Source of the DNA: Dehalococcoidia bacterium
GTDB taxonomy: Bacteria; Chloroflexota; Dehalococcoidia; Lucifugimonadales; UBA3495
Reading direction: 5' to 3'
DNA: 64,000 nt
NCBI GenBank assembly: GCA_965226825.1
Contig: CBDDED010000003.1
Coordinates: 3,092,340 to 3,156,339, forward strand
Shown: positions 51,402 to 56,856 of the stretch, in pieces
Numbering within the stretch: position 1 is the stretch's first letter
How the letters are laid out: each line of letters opens with the position of its first letter
The notes under the pieces: generated by a model
Told to the model about the DNA's origin: nothing
Database searches by the model: none
What the model saw: the letters and a program-made list of their open reading frames with translations, nothing else
Translations under genes and position numbers: made by a program

Positions 51402-52247
51402 ATGGGCCCGGTGATCGACAGCCATTGCCATATCTTCCCCGGCGATTTCTCCGAGAGGCGCTCTGAATTGCTGGCGCGGGACGTCACCTTCGCCGAACTG
51501 TTTTCCAGGGGCCGGGCGGCGTTGGCGACTGCGGAGACCCTGGTTGAAGCGATGGACCGTCATGGGATTGACCAGGCGGTGACGATGGGAGTGGGCTGGA
51601 ATGACCTCGCCCTGGCCCGGGAGGCCAACGATTACCTGATGGAGGCCGTCGCGGCCTATCCCGGACGGATTTCGGGTCTATGCTCGGTTAACCCCCGCTG
51701 GGGCAAGGCGACGCTGGATGAAATGGAGCGTTGCGCCGAGGGCGGCCTGATCGGGATTGGAGAATTGCACCCAGACACCCAGGGATTTGCCCTTGACGAC
51801 CAGGCCACCCTGGCCCCACTGATGGATTTAACCCGACGGCTGGGCTGGCCGGTGCTGGTCCACTGCTCCGAACCGGCTGGGCATGACTATCCGGGCAAGG
51901 GATCAACCACCCCTGGAAAAGTCTACCGGTTCATAGCAAATTTCCCGGAAGCCCGGATCATTTGCGCCCACTGGGGCGGCGGGTTGCCCTTCTACACACT
52001 GATGCCCGAGGTTCCGGCAGTGCTGGAAAATGTCTTTTTCGATACCGCGGCTACGCCGTTCCTCTACCGACCGGCGGTGTACCGGACCGGGGCAAGTCTC
52101 GCAGGGGCGGACAAGGTCCTCTTCGCCACCGATTTTCCGCTGATCGGGTACCCCAGGGCTTTGGGCCAGGTCGAAGAATCCGGGCTGCAGCCCGGGGACC
52201 GGGAAGCCATCTTGGGAGGCAATGCCGCCCGCCTATTTGGCCTGTGA
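51402..52247 (+). CDS. amidohydrolase family 2 protein
   Basis: IDSHCH, GIGELHP, AHWGGG and FATDFP motifs. Confidence 0.9.
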   Translation: MGPVIDSHCHIFPGDFSERRSELLARDVTFAELFSRGRAALATAETLVEAMDRHGIDQAVTMGVGWNDLALAREANDYLMEAVAAYPGRISGLCSVNPRWGKATLDEMERCAEGGLIGIGELHPDTQGFALDDQATLAPLMDLTRRLGWPVLVHCSEPAGHDYPGKGSTTPGKVYRFIANFPEARIICAHWGGGLPFYTLMPEVPAVLENVFFDTAATPFLYRPAVYRTGASLAGADKVLFATDFPLIGYPRALGQVEESGLQPGDREAILGGNAARLFGL

Positions 52248-52578
52248 TGCTTCGCGGGGTCTGTGGGCAATGGACCGGATTGAAACCGGGTTCTGGAGGA
52301 CTTGGAAAGCCTCGTGGGGGAAGACGTAGGGTCTTTCGATTATCATCGAATCCCCCGTGGCTCTTGCCGCAACGGGAAGCTGGAGCCCATTTTGACTCCT
52401 ACTCCTGTCATTCTCGCCGCAGCGGGAATCCAGAGCCCTTTTCCCCATCCAACCTGGTGCGTGTCTGCAGGAATGTTCCAGGTGGGACGTCGACCTGTCC
52501 ATCCGGCGCGTCTTAGTTGGCATAAAAGTCTTGGCACATAATCAGGGCTCTGGATTCCCGTTGCGACAAGAATTGCCA

Positions 52579-52771
52579 TGGCCTTGTCCAGGCCACACAT
52601 GAGGATGAAAATGGGACGGCGTCGGCTGGCAGAGTAGGCGGTTGTCATTGGCGCCTTGAGCCCGTGCGAGAATTTGCCTCGGTGACCTGCAGGCACCCAT
52701 GATTGTAGCCCCGCGTTGGCGGTGAGCACGAATAGTAACGTCTTGAATTTTAAGGTCGCCCGCCGGCTGGC
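52579..52771 (+). ncRNA. putative bridge/seek RNA of IS110 element 1
   Basis: Stems covary with element 2; loop segments ttgtcatt (52642-49) and gcgagaat (52666-73) match the REP target, atagtaa (52732-38) matches its own right end. Confidence 0.8.
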
Positions 52772-52794
52772 AGCATTCGAATTGGAGCTTGGAG

Positions 52795-54003
52795 ATGGAC
52801 AGCATCATAGAGAGGTGTTGCGGCCTGGACGTGCACAAGAAGTCGGTGGTGGCTTGCGCCGTCACCCCCGAGGGCCAGGAAGTCCGCACTTTCCGCACCA
52901 TGACCAAAGACCTTCCGGAATTGTCCGACTGGCTCAAGGACCACCGGGTGACCCACGCGGCCATGGAGAGCACCGGGGTCTACTGGAAGCCGGTCTACAA
53001 TCTGTTGGAGGCGGACTTCACCGTCTGGGTGGTCAACGCGCACCACATGAAGGCGGTGCCGGGGCGCAAGACCGACGTGAAGGATGCCGAGTGGATCGCC
53101 GATCTGCTGCGTCACGGTCTGTTGCGGCCCAGCTTCATCCCGGACCGGCCCCAGCGGGAACTGCGGGAGCTGACCCGCTACCGGCGGAGTCTGATCCAGG
53201 AGCGCACCCGGGCGGCGAACCGGATTCACCAGGTGCTGGAGGGGGCTAACATCAAGCTGGGATCGGTGGCCTCCAACGTGCTGGGGGTATCGGGACGGGC
53301 CATGCTGGCATCGCTGGCGCAGGAGGAGGAAGACCCCAAGGCATTGGCCGACCTGGCCCAGGGGAAGCTCCGGGATAAGATTGGCGAACTGGAGGAGGCG
53401 CTGCGGGGTGTAATAGGCCCGCATCAACGCTACCTGCTGAGCCGCTTGCTACGCCACTTCAGTTTCCTGGACGGGGAAATCGATGCTCTGAGCGAGGAGG
53501 TGGCCCAGCGGGTGGACCCTTTTGAGGAGACGGTGGCGGCGGTGGACGCCATTCCGGGGGTGGGGCGGCGTACTGCCGAGGTGGTGGTCGCGGAGATGGG
53601 CACGGACATGAGCCGGTTTCCCAGTGGGGGTCACCTGGCTTCCTGGGCCGGGGTGTGTCCAGGGAACAACCGGAGCGCGGAGAAGCATAAGCGCGCTCCC
53701 ACCAAGAAGGGCAACGGTTGGCTCAAGGCGGCTTTGGTGGAGGCGGCCAGGTCCGCAGCGCGCACCAAGACCTATCTGGGTGCCCAGTACCAGCGCCTCG
53801 CCCGGCGCATCGGGGCCAACCGGGCGGCCATGGCGGTAGCCCACTCCATCGCGGTCATCCTCTACCAGGTCATCAAGACCGGAAAGCCCTTCTTAGACCT
53901 GGGCCAACAGTACTTCGAACAACGCCAAGGCGCCGCCGCCACCCGCCGCTATGTCCGCCAACTCGAACGCCTCGGCCACCAAGTCACACTACAACCAGCC
54001 TGA
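52795..54003 (+). CDS. IS110 family DEDD recombinase/transposase
   Basis: GLDVHK, MESTG, KTDVKDA and PGNNRSA motifs. Confidence 0.96.
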   Translation: MDSIIERCCGLDVHKKSVVACAVTPEGQEVRTFRTMTKDLPELSDWLKDHRVTHAAMESTGVYWKPVYNLLEADFTVWVVNAHHMKAVPGRKTDVKDAEWIADLLRHGLLRPSFIPDRPQRELRELTRYRRSLIQERTRAANRIHQVLEGANIKLGSVASNVLGVSGRAMLASLAQEEEDPKALADLAQGKLRDKIGELEEALRGVIGPHQRYLLSRLLRHFSFLDGEIDALSEEVAQRVDPFEETVAAVDAIPGVGRRTAEVVVAEMGTDMSRFPSGGHLASWAGVCPGNNRSAEKHKRAPTKKGNGWLKAALVEAARSAARTKTYLGAQYQRLARRIGANRAAMAVAHSIAVILYQVIKTGKPFLDLGQQYFEQRQGAAATRRYVRQLERLGHQVTLQPA

Positions 54004-54030
54004 ACACGCTATTTTCATAGTAATTGCGGA

Positions 54031-54223
54031 TGGCCTTGCCGAGGCCACGCATGAAGAATGAAAATGACCCGGCGCCGGCCGGCACTATGGGCGGTCGTCA
54101 TTGGCGCTGTGAGCCCGCGTGGTAATTTGCCCTGGTGACCGCCAGGAACGCCTGAATGTCGCCCCGTCCTGACGGGAGCACGCATAATAAAGTCTCGATT
54201 ATTTCGGTCACCGGCCAGCCGGC
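54031..54223 (+). ncRNA. putative bridge/seek RNA of IS110 element 2
   Basis: Same fold; loop segments tcgtcatt (54095-102), gtggtaat (54119-126) and cataataa (54183-190). Confidence 0.8.
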
Positions 54224-54260
54224 AGCCCGCCCAGGGAGACTGAAGATAGGGGGACGCAAG

Positions 54261-55484
54261 ATGGAGAGCATTATCGAGAGGTGCTGTGGGCTGGACGTGC
54301 ATAAGAAATCGGTGGTGGCCTGTGCCATCACGCCGGAGGTCCAAGAGGTCCGCACCTTCAGGACCATGACCAGGGACCTGCTGGCGTTGGCCGATTGGCT
54401 TAAGGACCACCGGGTGACCCACGTGGCCATGGAGAGCACCGGCGTCTACTGGAAGCCGGTCTACAACCTGTTGGAGGACGAGTTTAGCGTCTGGGTGGTC
54501 AACGCCCATCACATGAAGGCCGTGCCGGGGCGCAAGACCGACGTGAAGGACGCCGAATGGATTGCCGACCTGCTGCGCCACGGTTTGTTGCGTTCCAGCT
54601 TCATCCCGGACCGGCCCCAGCGGGAACTGCGGGAGTTGACTCGCTACCGGCGCAGCCTGGTTCAGGAGCGCACCAGGGAGGCCAACCGGATCCAAAAAGT
54701 GCTGGAAGGGGCCAACGTCAAGCTGGGGTCGGTGGCCACCGACGTGCTGGGGGTATCGGGGCGGGCCATGCTGAAGGCCCTGTCCGAAGGGGAGGAGGAC
54801 CCGAAGGCGCTGGCGGAGTTGGCCCGGGGGCGGCTGAGGGAGAAGCGAGAGGAACTGGAGGAGGCCCTGCGGGGCCTGATGGGGCCGCATCAGCGCTTCA
54901 TGCTGGCCATCCAACTGGACCGCCTCAACTGCCTGGACGGGCAGATCGAGACCCTGGATCTGGAGGTGGGCCGGCGGGTGGACCCTTTTGAGGAGACGGT
55001 GGCGGCGGTGGACACCATCCCGGGGATCGGACGGCGCACCGCCGAGGTCATCGTGGCGGAGATGGGCACGGACATGAGCCGGTTTCCCAGTGGGGGTCAC
55101 CTGGCTTCCTGGGCCGGGGTGTGTCCAGGGAACAACCGGAGCGCGGAGAAGCATAAGCGCGCTCCCACCAAGAAGGGCAACGGTTGGCTCAAGGCGGCTT
55201 TGGTGGAGGCGGCCAAGTCCGCAGCGCGCACCAAGACCTATCTGGGCGCCCAGTACCAGCGCCTCGCCCGGCGCATCGGGGCCAACCGGGCGGCCATGGC
55301 GGTTGCCCACTCTATCGCCGTTATACTGCACCAAGTCATCAAGACCGGAAAGCCCTTCTTCGACCTCGGCCAACAGTACTTCGAAGAGCGCGACCGCGCC
55401 GCCATCACCCGCCGGTCGGTCCGCCAACTCGAACGCCTCGGTTACAAAATAACTCTGGAAGTCCCTACCCTCCAAGCCGCCTGA
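54261..55484 (+). CDS. IS110 family DEDD recombinase/transposase
   Basis: Same catalytic motifs; start MESIIER aligns with element 1 MDSIIER. Confidence 0.96.
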
Positions 55485-55587
55485 ACCATATTTTCATAAT
55501 AATGACGGGGTAGGAGTCAAAATGGGCTCCAGCTTCCCGCTGCGGCTGGAATGACGGGGGACAATAGAAAGACCCTGATCCGCCGGG

Positions 55588-55971
55588 TCAACCGCGGACC
55601 CGGTAGATTTCCACGGCGGCATGGTCGATTACCGACCCACGGATGGGCGGGTGCGGCTTCTTTACTCTGATACCCACTGCCCGCACCGGAAATTTTTCCA
55701 AAACCCTGCTGGCGATTGCCTGGGCTGTGGACTCCAGCAAATTCCGCGGATCGCCTTCCACCACATCCCGAACTTCCCGGTAAAGACCGGAGTAGCTGAC
55801 CGTGTCTTCCAGCTTGTCCGAGTCTCCGGCCCGGCTCAAATCCAACTCAACGCTGAGGTCAACCAGGTACGATTGCCCCAGGACCCGCTCTTCTTCGTTG
55901 ACGCCGTGAAAGCCGTAAAACTGCATCCCTTCCAGGATGATTCGGTCCGACGGCGGCAGGGCTTCAGCCAT
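55588..55971 (-). CDS. folB: dihydroneopterin aldolase
   Basis: FYGFHGV..EER..GQ, TVSY, NLLE and KPHPP motifs. Confidence 0.95.
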   Translation of the reverse strand: MAEALPPSDRIILEGMQFYGFHGVNEEERVLGQSYLVDLSVELDLSRAGDSDKLEDTVSYSGLYREVRDVVEGDPRNLLESTAQAIASRVLEKFPVRAVGIRVKKPHPPIRGSVIDHAAVEIYRVRG

Positions 55972-55977
55972 CCGGCT

Positions 55978-56856
55978 TCACGAATCGGCCTGCCGGACCT
56001 GCTCCGCAATGGCCAGCAGGTTCCGGGCTCGTTTGACCACCGGAACGTCGATCATGCGCCCATCCAGCGAAAGAGACCCCCGGCCCTGCGCCTCAGCCTG
56101 GTCCCATGCGTCCACCACTCGCTCGGCATAGGCAACTTCATCCGGGGCCGGTGCAAAGGCTTCGTTGATTGTGGGAATCTGGGCAGGATGAATCGCGAAG
56201 CGTCCGGTGAATCCCATACGCCGGCTGATTTGAAGGTCGCGCCGCAGGCCGTCTTCGTCCCGGAATTGAACGAATGGGGTATCCAGCGACCCAATCCCGG
56301 CCGCCCTGGCGGCGACGGCTACAGTGGCGCGCGCAAATTCCAATTCCTCCCCGGCATCGGTGCGCTGTATCCCCATGTCGTCGGTATAGTCCTCGGCCCC
56401 GAAGGCGATGGCCTCAATGCGGGGAGAACTGGTAGCCAGTTCCAGGGCCGTCAGCACTGCCCTGGCGTTTTCGATCCAGGGAATCACTTTTATCTGTCCA
56501 GGAGGTAAGCCCGCCGCCGATTCCGCGTTTGTGATGATGCGGTCAACGTCTTTCAGGTCAAAAACTGTTTGGGACTTCCCGATGCTGATCCCGGCGAGGT
56601 CCGGGCTTATCAGGGCCTCCAACTCGCCTCGGGTGAGCCCGGTGTCGAACGAGTTGACCCGCGCCATCACGCGTTTCCCTGCCTTCGCCAGCCTGGGCGC
56701 CCACTCCAGCGCGGTTGCCAGTGCTGCCGGCTTCTCTCCCGGCGGCACCGAGTCCTCCAGGTCGATCATTATCACGTCGGCCTTGAATTCCAAGGCCCTT
56801 TCCAGCATCCTGGCCTGGTTGCCGGGGACGAATATCAGGCTGCGCAGTAGGTTCAT
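55978..56856 (-). CDS. CitE/malyl-CoA lyase (HpcH/HpaI) family protein
   Basis: RSLIFVPGN, DLEDSV, FGAEDY, AIHPAQ and MIDVP motifs. Confidence 0.9.
   Translation of the reverse strand: MNLLRSLIFVPGNQARMLERALEFKADVIMIDLEDSVPPGEKPAALATALEWAPRLAKAGKRVMARVNSFDTGLTRGELEALISPDLAGISIGKSQTVFDLKDVDRIITNAESAAGLPPGQIKVIPWIENARAVLTALELATSSPRIEAIAFGAEDYTDDMGIQRTDAGEELEFARATVAVAARAAGIGSLDTPFVQFRDEDGLRRDLQISRRMGFTGRFAIHPAQIPTINEAFAPAPDEVAYAERVVDAWDQAEAQGRGSLSLDGRMIDVPVVKRARNLLAIAEQVRQADS

Follow-up and report, generated by a model that had tools for sequence, protein, structure and literature searches.

The window analysed here, a stretch of 64,000 nucleotides (G000:C3:3092340-3156339), contains two related elements of the IS110 family, el1 and el2, which are arranged head to tail inside one and the same REP. 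According to the reading of the junctions, the insertion sequence el1 extends over 52573..54023 on the plus strand, including its right-hand copy of the AA core, and has its left AA core copy at 52571-52572. The second element, el2, directly adjoins it at 54024..55502 on the same strand, the AA at 54022-54023 being common to both, and the DNA of the two elements is 83.6% identical. [quoted passage not shown] The three junctions read …GGGCTCTGGATTCCCGTTGCGACAAG-AA / TTGCCATGG… at the entry into el1, …TTTTCATAGT-AA / TTGCGGATGG… between el1 and el2, and …TTTTCATAAT-AA / TGACGGGGTAGG… at the exit from el2. The AA core is found at 52571-72, 54022-23 and 55501-02, and beyond this core a target duplication is absent.

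An empty REP has the sequence GCGAGAATGAC (GCGAG-AA-TGAC), which is the commonest REP variant and is present in the genome as 147 free exact copies of the 11-mer; among the 681 genomic sites ending in AATGACG, 132 have GCGGCGAG in front. Of el1-type elements the genome has three copies, about 96% identical, and el2 is present once. The three el1-type copies have the same ends and are each located within a REP (GCGAG-AA / ... / AA-TGACGGGG), the copy in the window having the REP variant ACAAG-AA as its left flank. Due to this variant its fit to its own guide, to be described below, is poorer than that of copies B and C. The REP position of the el1 copies (GCGAG-AA / … / AA-TGACGG) is also taken by several mini-elements of about 58 nt, which consist of two ends only.

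The recombinase genes are located at 52795..54003 (el1, 402 aa) and 54261..55484 (el2, 407 aa), both on the plus strand. Their products have the same domain order, with an N-terminal DEDD RuvC-like domain (Pfam DEDD_Tnp_IS110, PF01548; E 2.9e-40 in el1 and 2.3e-39 in el2) and a C-terminal Tnp domain (Transposase_20, PF02371; E 7.7e-22 and 8.7e-23, respectively). The el1 protein can be aligned to the IS621 transposase 8wt6_A (E 2.2e-19), and by a hand count on this alignment its residues D, E, D, D and S face D13, E62, D104, D107 and S243. The numbering of that chain is shifted by +2 relative to D11, E60, D102, D105 and S241, which the text of PMC11208158 gives as the catalytic residues of IS621. 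The source names of homologous proteins and of plasmid matches give "IS110 family transposase" alone. The two recombinases share 84% amino acid identity and the RNAs proposed for them differ in the left-target and right-end guides, in agreement with the first-pass annotation, which had described a natural pair of related programmable recombinases.

In the el1-type layout the right end is about 20 nt past the stop codon, and the RNA region is upstream of the gene. The left end starts with a terminal hairpin at 52578..52598 on the plus strand (CATGGCC-TTGTCCA-GGCCAC), followed by a conserved ATGAAAAT at 52605-52612. The latter forms an 8-bp pair with ATTTTCAT at 54012-19, which is conserved in homologs, the left copy being about 32 nt inside the end. 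When the first 34 nt of distinct left ends were folded, 44 of 45 MFE structures had at least five paired bases, a threshold that was set by ourselves and that is independent of any one fixed hairpin position. Inspection by eye places a hairpin 3' of CATG in most left ends, with varying stem sequences, and shuffled sequences folded more weakly in most cases. The terminal hairpin of the left end is kept in the mini-elements.

Between this hairpin and the recombinase gene, in the long non-coding end of each element, a structured RNA gene with two internal loops is predicted. In el1 a closing stem of 10 bp, three of them G-U, is formed by GTCGGCTGGC at 52621-52630 and GCCGGCTGGC at 52762-52771; in el2 the equivalent stem (54074-83 / 54214-23) has one C-A mismatch. 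It encloses two hairpins. The stem of hairpin 1 is AGGCGG (52636-41) with TTGCCT (52674-79) in el1 and GGGCGG (54089-94) with TTGCCC (54127-32) in el2, by which an A-U pair is replaced by G-C. The stem of hairpin 2 is GGTGACC (52681-87) with GGTCGCC (52754-60) in el1 and GGTGACCG (54134-41) with CGGTCACC (54205-12) in el2, by which U-G becomes U-A and one pair is added. Except for the C-A in the closing stem of el2, the differences between the two elements preserve pairing. The stems, loops and guide motifs that the first-pass annotation had named were all recovered at their positions, and the hairpin covariation that it had noticed is borne out by these replacements.

Folding of the single sequences of el1 and el2 gave structures no better than those of shuffled sequences (MFE z = +1.09 and +0.69), as can be expected for G+C-rich sequence. 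Since single-sequence folding was uninformative, 80 homologous loci were gathered that encode relatives of the recombinase with 45-70% amino acid identity, from many phyla. A covariance model (R1) with five helices was built from el1, el2 and the homolog L001; these helices are the closing stem (P1), the stem and inner hairpin of loop 1 (P2 and P3) and the stem and inner hairpin of loop 2 (P4 and P5). The model matches 72 of the 80 loci on the plus strand, directly upstream of the open reading frame, along with two weak minus-strand matches within open reading frames (E 0.89 and 0.90) that we take as chance. The predicted core of the bridge RNA, taken as the extent of the match on the plus strand, is 52617..52776 in el1 (180.7 bits) and 54070..54228 in el2 (178.9 bits). 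In the alignment 93.3% of the cells are paired, against 64.4% in shuffles and 34-44% when partners are slid by 1-3 columns, and the covariation score is 0.672, against 0.185 and 0.05-0.09, respectively. Changes on both sides of a pair, i.e. compensatory ones, occur in 35 of 36 pairs, a count taken from an alignment fitted to the model and for that reason biased towards the structure. From this model-fitted alignment RNAalifold predicted four of the five helices again (P1, P3, P4 and P5), with 30 pairs of which 28 are compensatory; from a plain MAFFT alignment of 20 sequences it recovered the inner hairpin of loop 1 alone, so a structure-aware alignment is needed. A scan of 51500-56500 against Rfam with E values up to 1 gave zero matches, also with the IS621 model. 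Pairs of the G-U type are frequent in the homolog alignment (e.g. in 49 and 59 sequences at two pairs), and since these would read C-A on the opposite strand, the plus strand is the RNA strand. The first-pass annotation had reached the same orientation from the G-U pairs of the two elements, had suggested a covariance model over homologous elements as a check, and had assigned the structure to a bridge RNA of the IS110 family with target- and donor-binding loops; the protein domains and the structure of the homologs are in line with that assignment.

In three metatranscriptome runs, contigs extend over 52582-52988 with one mismatch and also over most of both genes. Such contigs from RNA libraries report presence only, in which carry-over of DNA may have a part, and they are silent on ends, strand and level. 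A circle junction was not seen in the contigs of these three runs and one DNA run; the joints present in them belong to other genomic copies and to a mini-element. A scan for promoters and terminators found no promoter on the plus strand, and ATGAAAAT was considered as a -10 box, for which no conserved -35 box speaks. A plus-strand promoter being absent from the scan, one could think of the conserved structure as a 5' leader of the recombinase mRNA that acts on translation or stability, or as a binding site at the DNA level, instead of a guide RNA. The structure is indeed directly upstream of the ribosome-binding site, with the closing stem ending 11 nt before the GGAG at 52783-86. A leader would not need loop segments that vary in step with the flanks and right end of each element, however, and this is what is found over dozens of loci; moreover, the two-module architecture of stem, guide, hairpin and guide matches that of the solved IS621 RNA (PMC11208158). 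We therefore regard a leader or DNA site as very improbable, and continue with the guide RNA.

For identification of the guides, the four single-stranded segments between the helices were cut out and compared with each locus's own flanks. In el1, loop 1 contains GTCATT (52644-49) and GCGAGAAT (52666-73). The first of these, on the 5' side of the target-binding loop, is the right-target guide g1 (GUCAUU, 52644..52649, plus strand), which is complementary to AA-TGAC of the top strand, i.e. to core and right flank. The second, on the 3' side, is part of the left-target guide g2 (GCGAG-AA followed by UU, 52666..52674, plus strand), which equals left flank, core and the initial two bases of the left end. 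Being identical to the top strand, its GCGAGAA would pair with the bottom strand. Across the homologs g2 likewise consists of left-flank sequence, core and the first one or two bases of the element, and g1 is the reverse complement of core and right flank, shorter and with a spacer of 0-1 nt. A g2 10-mer is matched at at least 9 of 10 positions in the 130-nt left window of its own locus in 31 of 57 cases, compared to 25 of 3531 for non-cognate combinations; for g1 a run of at least 5 nt from the core is found in 13 of 41 cognate and 47 of 1636 non-cognate comparisons. The boundaries used for g2, as well as those for the donor guide g4 discussed below, were located with the guides themselves, for which the comparison of cognate and non-cognate values controls in part. 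In 27 of 31 loci the two RNA bases past the core in g2 are those with which the left end begins, an extension into the element's own end that is like a handshake, by analogy with the extension that the text of PMC11208158 describes after the 3' guide of the target loop in IS621. The two guides of the target loop are predicted to read opposite strands of the target and to overlap at the core. The proposal that loop 1 spells a REP target is thus upheld, the target GCGAG-AA-TGAC being the sequence with 147 free exact copies.

In the donor-binding loop the guide on the 3' side is clear. The right-end donor guide g4 of el1, AAUAGU-AA (AAUAGUAA), is located at 52731..52738 on the plus strand; its ATAGTAA (52732-38) is identical to the element's own right end (54015-23), where this motif occupies 54017-54023. 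In el2 the guide CAUAAU-AA (CATAATAA) at 54183..54190, plus strand, is identical to 55495-55502. The right-end guide thus changes from el1 to el2 together with the right ends, which is the covariation of guide and donor that had been reported from the two elements alone. Across the homologs g4 always appears as ACG, six nucleotides and the core, the latter two being identical to the element's final six bases with the core; in the DNA of the right end the matching sequence is preceded by a conserved ATTTTC. A full 8/8 match in the own right window is found for 27 of 61 cognate guides, compared to 8 of 3732 non-cognate combinations.

The 5' side of the donor loop (g3, 52689..52707, plus strand) holds a candidate left-end guide, with AUU at 52702-04 opposite AAT and GGCA at 52692-95 opposite TGCC at 52574-77, and would read the core and left end weakly and discontinuously. 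A conserved YU in g3 can pair with the core in 40 and 31 of 42 loci for its two positions, and in 29 of 42 the A that follows can pair with the first T, matches that say little since these positions hardly vary. In a subset of loci a distal 4-mer of g3 matches positions 1-5 of the left end with differing sequences: GGCA/TGCC in el1, GTAT/ATAC in L040, GGGA/TCCC in L017, AGGT/ACCT in L001 and AGAAC/GTTCT in L046. The longest match of g3 has a mean length of 3.7 nt for cognate and 3.6 nt for non-cognate combinations, and a column-by-column comparison of g3 with left ends gave a weak diagonal signal. Copy B of el1 has TACC for TGCC in its left end without a compensating change in the RNA, and g3 of el2 is out of the register seen in el1. 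The homologs are therefore as equivocal on the second donor guide as the window was for the first-pass annotation, in which it could not be identified convincingly. For the positions of the donor loop that could form a handshake, a match to the right flank is found in 0 of 39 loci.

The length of the core deserves attention, as a 3-nt AAT core and a corresponding IS110 subtype had been proposed. In favour of a trinucleotide crossover region, each of the three junctions contains AAT (52571-73, 54022-24 and 55501-03) and the el1 target guides GUCAUU and GCGAGAAU each span its three bases. The donor guides, on the other hand, read AA and face the T with C in el1 and with A in el2, and in 39 confidently bounded loci the homologous guide columns show a family core of two nucleotides, AG in 31 and AA in 8. 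Left end and right flank agree in the base past the core in 10 of 39 loci, which is about chance, and in L001 the shared sequence is AA alone. The U that follows AA in the left-target guide finds a better explanation in the extension by 2 nt into the left end that was found in 27 of 31 loci. Because of the 2-nt family core, the donor guides that mismatch T, the chance-level sharing and this extension, the core is most likely the dinucleotide AA; a core of AAT is quite improbable, and its earlier assignment was probably wrong.

The order of these guides is of importance for the polarity of the recombination site. In IS621 the left-target guide (LTG, A50-U58) is 5' of the right-target guide (RTG, G77-G80), according to the text of PMC11208158, and in the texts of PMC11208160 and PMC11208158 LD stands for the right end and RD for the left end, with the left donor guide on the 5' side. 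In the present clade, the guides that equal left flank plus core and right end plus core are both on 3' sides. The swapped guide order, together with an AG/AA core that is the reverse complement of CT/TT, implies that the site is inverted with respect to the genes. From the viewpoint of the RNA the predicted geometry is as in IS621; from that of the element, the site is turned round with respect to the genes for RNA and recombinase. This supports the reversed reading of the target that had been noted in the first pass, where it was attributed to a subtype; it is a trait of the whole clade and not specific for el1.

The arrangement of el1 and el2 can be understood from the target loop of el2. 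Its right-target guide CGUCAUU (54096..54102, plus strand) pairs with AA-TGACG in the right half of the REP (55501-55507). The left-target guide (CGUGGU-AA followed by UU, 54118..54127, plus strand) fits the right end of el1, CATAGT-AA-TT, with six of eight bases identical and two rG:dT wobbles, followed by TT. When this guide (CGUGGUAA) is compared with the left half of the REP (GGCGAGAA), four of eight positions agree, whereas CATAGTAA gives six of eight plus two wobbles and CATGGTAA (CATGGT-AA-TT) a still better fit of seven of eight plus one wobble. A search with the first 240 nt of el2 (left end and bridge RNA region) in 61 genomes, i.e. the genome of the window and 60 relatives, yielded two more full-length el2-type copies, in G003 and G009, which are 97-98% identical over the query. 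All three full-length copies are located directly behind TTTTCAT(A/G)GT-AA, two having the left-target guide CGUGGUAA and the third GGUGGUAA, and their upstream partners are a full el1, a mini-element and a right-end-like remnant. Another el2-type left end in the genome of the window (near C3:2953000) is behind the CATAGT-AA of a mini-element. In the family at large, seven of 48 distinct, confidently bounded left junctions are right-end-like (TTTTC, 5 nt and the core), compared to 0 of 48 at a control offset 25 nt farther upstream, and six of these seven elements have a right end of their own that is different from the one upstream. An eighth match to the pattern, at L075, has no TTTTC motif and was dropped as chance.

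These data suggest that el2 is a case of natural re-programming, in which the right-target guide would have kept AA-TGACG and the left-target guide would read an el1-type right end, so that the element lands at a right junction and builds a head-to-tail array. Target loops such as that of el2 are apparently programmed to the right junction of another element. The reverse order of events can also be envisaged, with el2 entering the REP first and el1 being inserted later at the left junction of el2 (GCGAG-AA-TTGCGG), a site matched by halves through the left-target guide only. The left-target guide of el1 with its UU matches GCGAG-AA-TT, which with the flank ACAAG-AA found here amounts to AA, TT and three of five flank bases; there are also el2-type mini-elements directly within a REP (L109); and half-match recombination and repeated insertion into occupied IS110 loci are reported in two 2026 preprints (10.64898/2026.08.31.748434, 10.64898/2026.08.14.744561). 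However, the right-target guide of el1 would mismatch TTGC, and the left-target guide of el2 agrees with right-end sequences far better than with the left half of the REP, as the counts given above show. The three el2-type copies have three different upstream partners, and what is conserved among these is the right-end-like sequence. Since a half-matched insertion of el1 also leaves the guide of el2 unexplained, we consider this order of events unlikely, and arrival of el2 at a junction made by an el1-type element is the reading that we adopt.

Taken together, el1 and el2 can be described as mobile elements of the IS110 family that would use RNA-guided recombination at an inverted site, el2 being retargeted to el1-type junctions, a reading to which we assign a probability of roughly 0.88. 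The left non-coding end would encode an RNA of about 160 nt on the coding strand, consisting of the closing stem and two modules of stem, internal loop and hairpin. By analogy with IS621, the element may excise as a circle in which the right end is connected to the left end through AA; the recombinase, with its DEDD RuvC-like and serine Tnp domains, would then together with the RNA bring about synapsis of the circle junction with the REP GCGAG-AA-TGAC, and strand exchange would take place at the AA dinucleotide. The existence of the RNA, its binding by the recombinase and the activity of the system are things that we infer from sequence.

Bridge RNAs are of wide interest as guides for programmable recombination, and the el1/el2 pair offers guide rules that can be read directly and are backed by some 70 homologs. 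The inverted polarity of the site bears on which strand is exchanged first and on the relation between the IS110 and IS1111 layouts. If el2 is indeed aimed at a junction of another element, this would provide a simple explanation for ordered IS110 arrays: an insertion sequence would chase the insertions of its relatives, which would give rise to ordered tandem arrays alongside a population of end-only mini-elements. The known mechanism of bridge recombination is left unchanged by these findings.

The RNAs of el1 and el2 belong to a known kind of system, with a guide order that is reversed as compared to the textbook example. With IS621 and ISCro4, as described by Durrant et al. 2024 (PMC11208160) and Hiraizumi et al. 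2024 (PMC11208158), they have in common the two protein domains and the conserved catalytic residues, an RNA gene upstream of the recombinase gene in a long left end, two modules that each consist of stem, guide, hairpin and guide, loops that would each read both strands with overlap at a 2-nt core, a REP as target, and a handshake-like extension past the 3' guide of the target loop. The protein similarity is distant (E 2.2e-19), however, and the proteins differ in size (402 aa here, 326-341 aa there). Furthermore, the guide for left flank plus core and the right-end guide are on the 3' sides here and on the 5' sides in IS621, the core on the coding strand is AG/AA here and CT in IS621, the longer guides are the 3' ones, and the donor loop differs from that of IS621 in its handshake match (0 of 39 loci). 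The canonical IS621-like layout, with left guides on 5' sides and CT as the coding-strand core, is accordingly not that of the el1/el2 clade.

With the IS1111 seekRNA (Siddiquee et al. 2024, PMC11187229) the clade shares the order in which the complement of the top strand precedes that of the bottom strand; the text of that paper gives top-strand complement first for IS1111 seekRNAs and the reverse for its IS110 example. A conserved inverted repeat near the ends, here ATGAAAAT / ATTTTCAT, recalls the sub-terminal inverted repeats of 7-17 bp in IS1111 elements, yet the left copy of this 8-bp pair, about 32 nt inside the left end, makes it asymmetric. The RNA is upstream of the recombinase gene, unlike IS1111 elements, which have the guide RNA downstream of the gene in a long right end, and the donor loop is a simple internal loop, which is a further difference. 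With its upstream RNA and top-strand-first order, the clade thus combines the RNA position of IS110 with the guide order of IS1111. In the running text of the literature consulted, no statement was found of a left-end-encoded RNA with IS1111-like guide order; this layout may already be depicted in Extended Data Fig. 10c of PMC11208160 and in Fig. S12 of the 2026 preprint 10.64898/2026.10.21.760802. The latter survey comprises 86 covariance models and 32,190 bridge RNAs, many with structures deviating from IS621, and it probably already contains this family or layout. We put forward only tentatively, and with somewhat more doubt than conviction, that the clade, with recombinases of about 400 aa and thousands of members, represents a distinct bridge layout in which the site is inverted relative to the genes and the CT core is on the non-coding strand, and in which some elements, such as el2, have been retargeted to the junction of another element's right end and flank.

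Comparison with tandem loci finally brings out what is particular about the pair. End-only modules are reported for ISPpu9 (PMC12288879) and tandem growth for IS110 loci (10.64898/2026.08.14.744561), and the present locus resembles both, in the presence of end-only non-autonomous modules for which the recombinase acts in trans, and in the head-to-tail accumulation of IS110 modules and non-coding units in a REP. A target guide programmed to the right end of another element was not found in the literature text. Unlike the known cases, the two full elements are diverged (83.6% identity) and not duplicated, and one target guide of the downstream element fits the right end of the element in front of it. 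This divergence and the guide of el2 point to programmed insertion at a junction, and not to duplication or a half-matched accident.

The REP in which the two related IS110-family elements (element 1 and element 2) lie head to tail is accompanied by additional REP copies on either side of the insertion, at window positions 52394-52440 and 55525-55560. These flanking copies occur as two variants, …GTCATTCTCGCCGCAGCGGGAATCCAGAGCCC and …GTCATTCCAGCCGCAGCGGGAAGCTGGAGCCC, and in the genome the pattern GGATTCCCG[CT] was counted 377 times.

The same position of the REP is also used by mini-elements of about 58-75 nt, which consist of ends only and carry neither the RNA module nor an ORF. They are composed of the left-end hairpin followed by ATGAAAATGG, CC and TATTTTCAT(A/G)(G/A)TAA, and are frequently arranged in head-to-tail chains. 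Examples outside the window in the source genome (G000) are found at C3:1680345-1680385 (minus strand), C3:2367273-2367313 and C2:471226-471266; further sites are present in this genome, as well as in the relatives L086-L110. In one type the left end begins with TGACGG and resembles the right half of the REP.

The left-end hairpin itself directly follows CATG in element 1 (window 52578-52598). When the first 34 nt were folded, at least five paired bases were obtained for 44 of 45 distinct left ends; judged by eye, most of them form this hairpin, their stems being unrelated in sequence. The structure may form the 5' end of a longer RNA as a stem-loop, or act in cis as a DNA feature, since the mini-elements retain it.

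Of the three element 1-type copies in the genome, copy C (C3:2992631-2994080, outside the window) is 1 nt longer, and its longest open frame spans 366 aa, whereas copies A and B each have a stop-to-stop frame of 418 aa; copy C probably contains a frameshift.

The right-end guide of element 1 (52731-52738) could pair with the right end of element 2 (55495-55502) via one rG:dT wobble, whereas the guide of element 2 would mismatch the right end of element 1; on the basis of these pairings, cross-mobilisation between the two may be one-directional. In the homolog from a Chloroflexota MAG (L012), the left target guide (GGTACCAA) is almost identical to the right-end guide (CGTACCAA), and a second junction of right end and left end lies about 70 nt downstream. 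The target of L012 seems to be the right junction of the element itself.

Both elements possess an 8-bp inverted repeat, at 52605-52612 and 54012-54019 in element 1 and at 54058-54065 and 55490-55497 in element 2, which is kept among homologs. Its left copy, ATGAAAAT, is located in the left end immediately 5' of the closing stem of the bridge RNA, and its right copy, ATTTTCAT, immediately internal to the right end. The repeat may serve as a recombinase site or a promoter element, or may be a sub-terminal repeat like that of IS1111.
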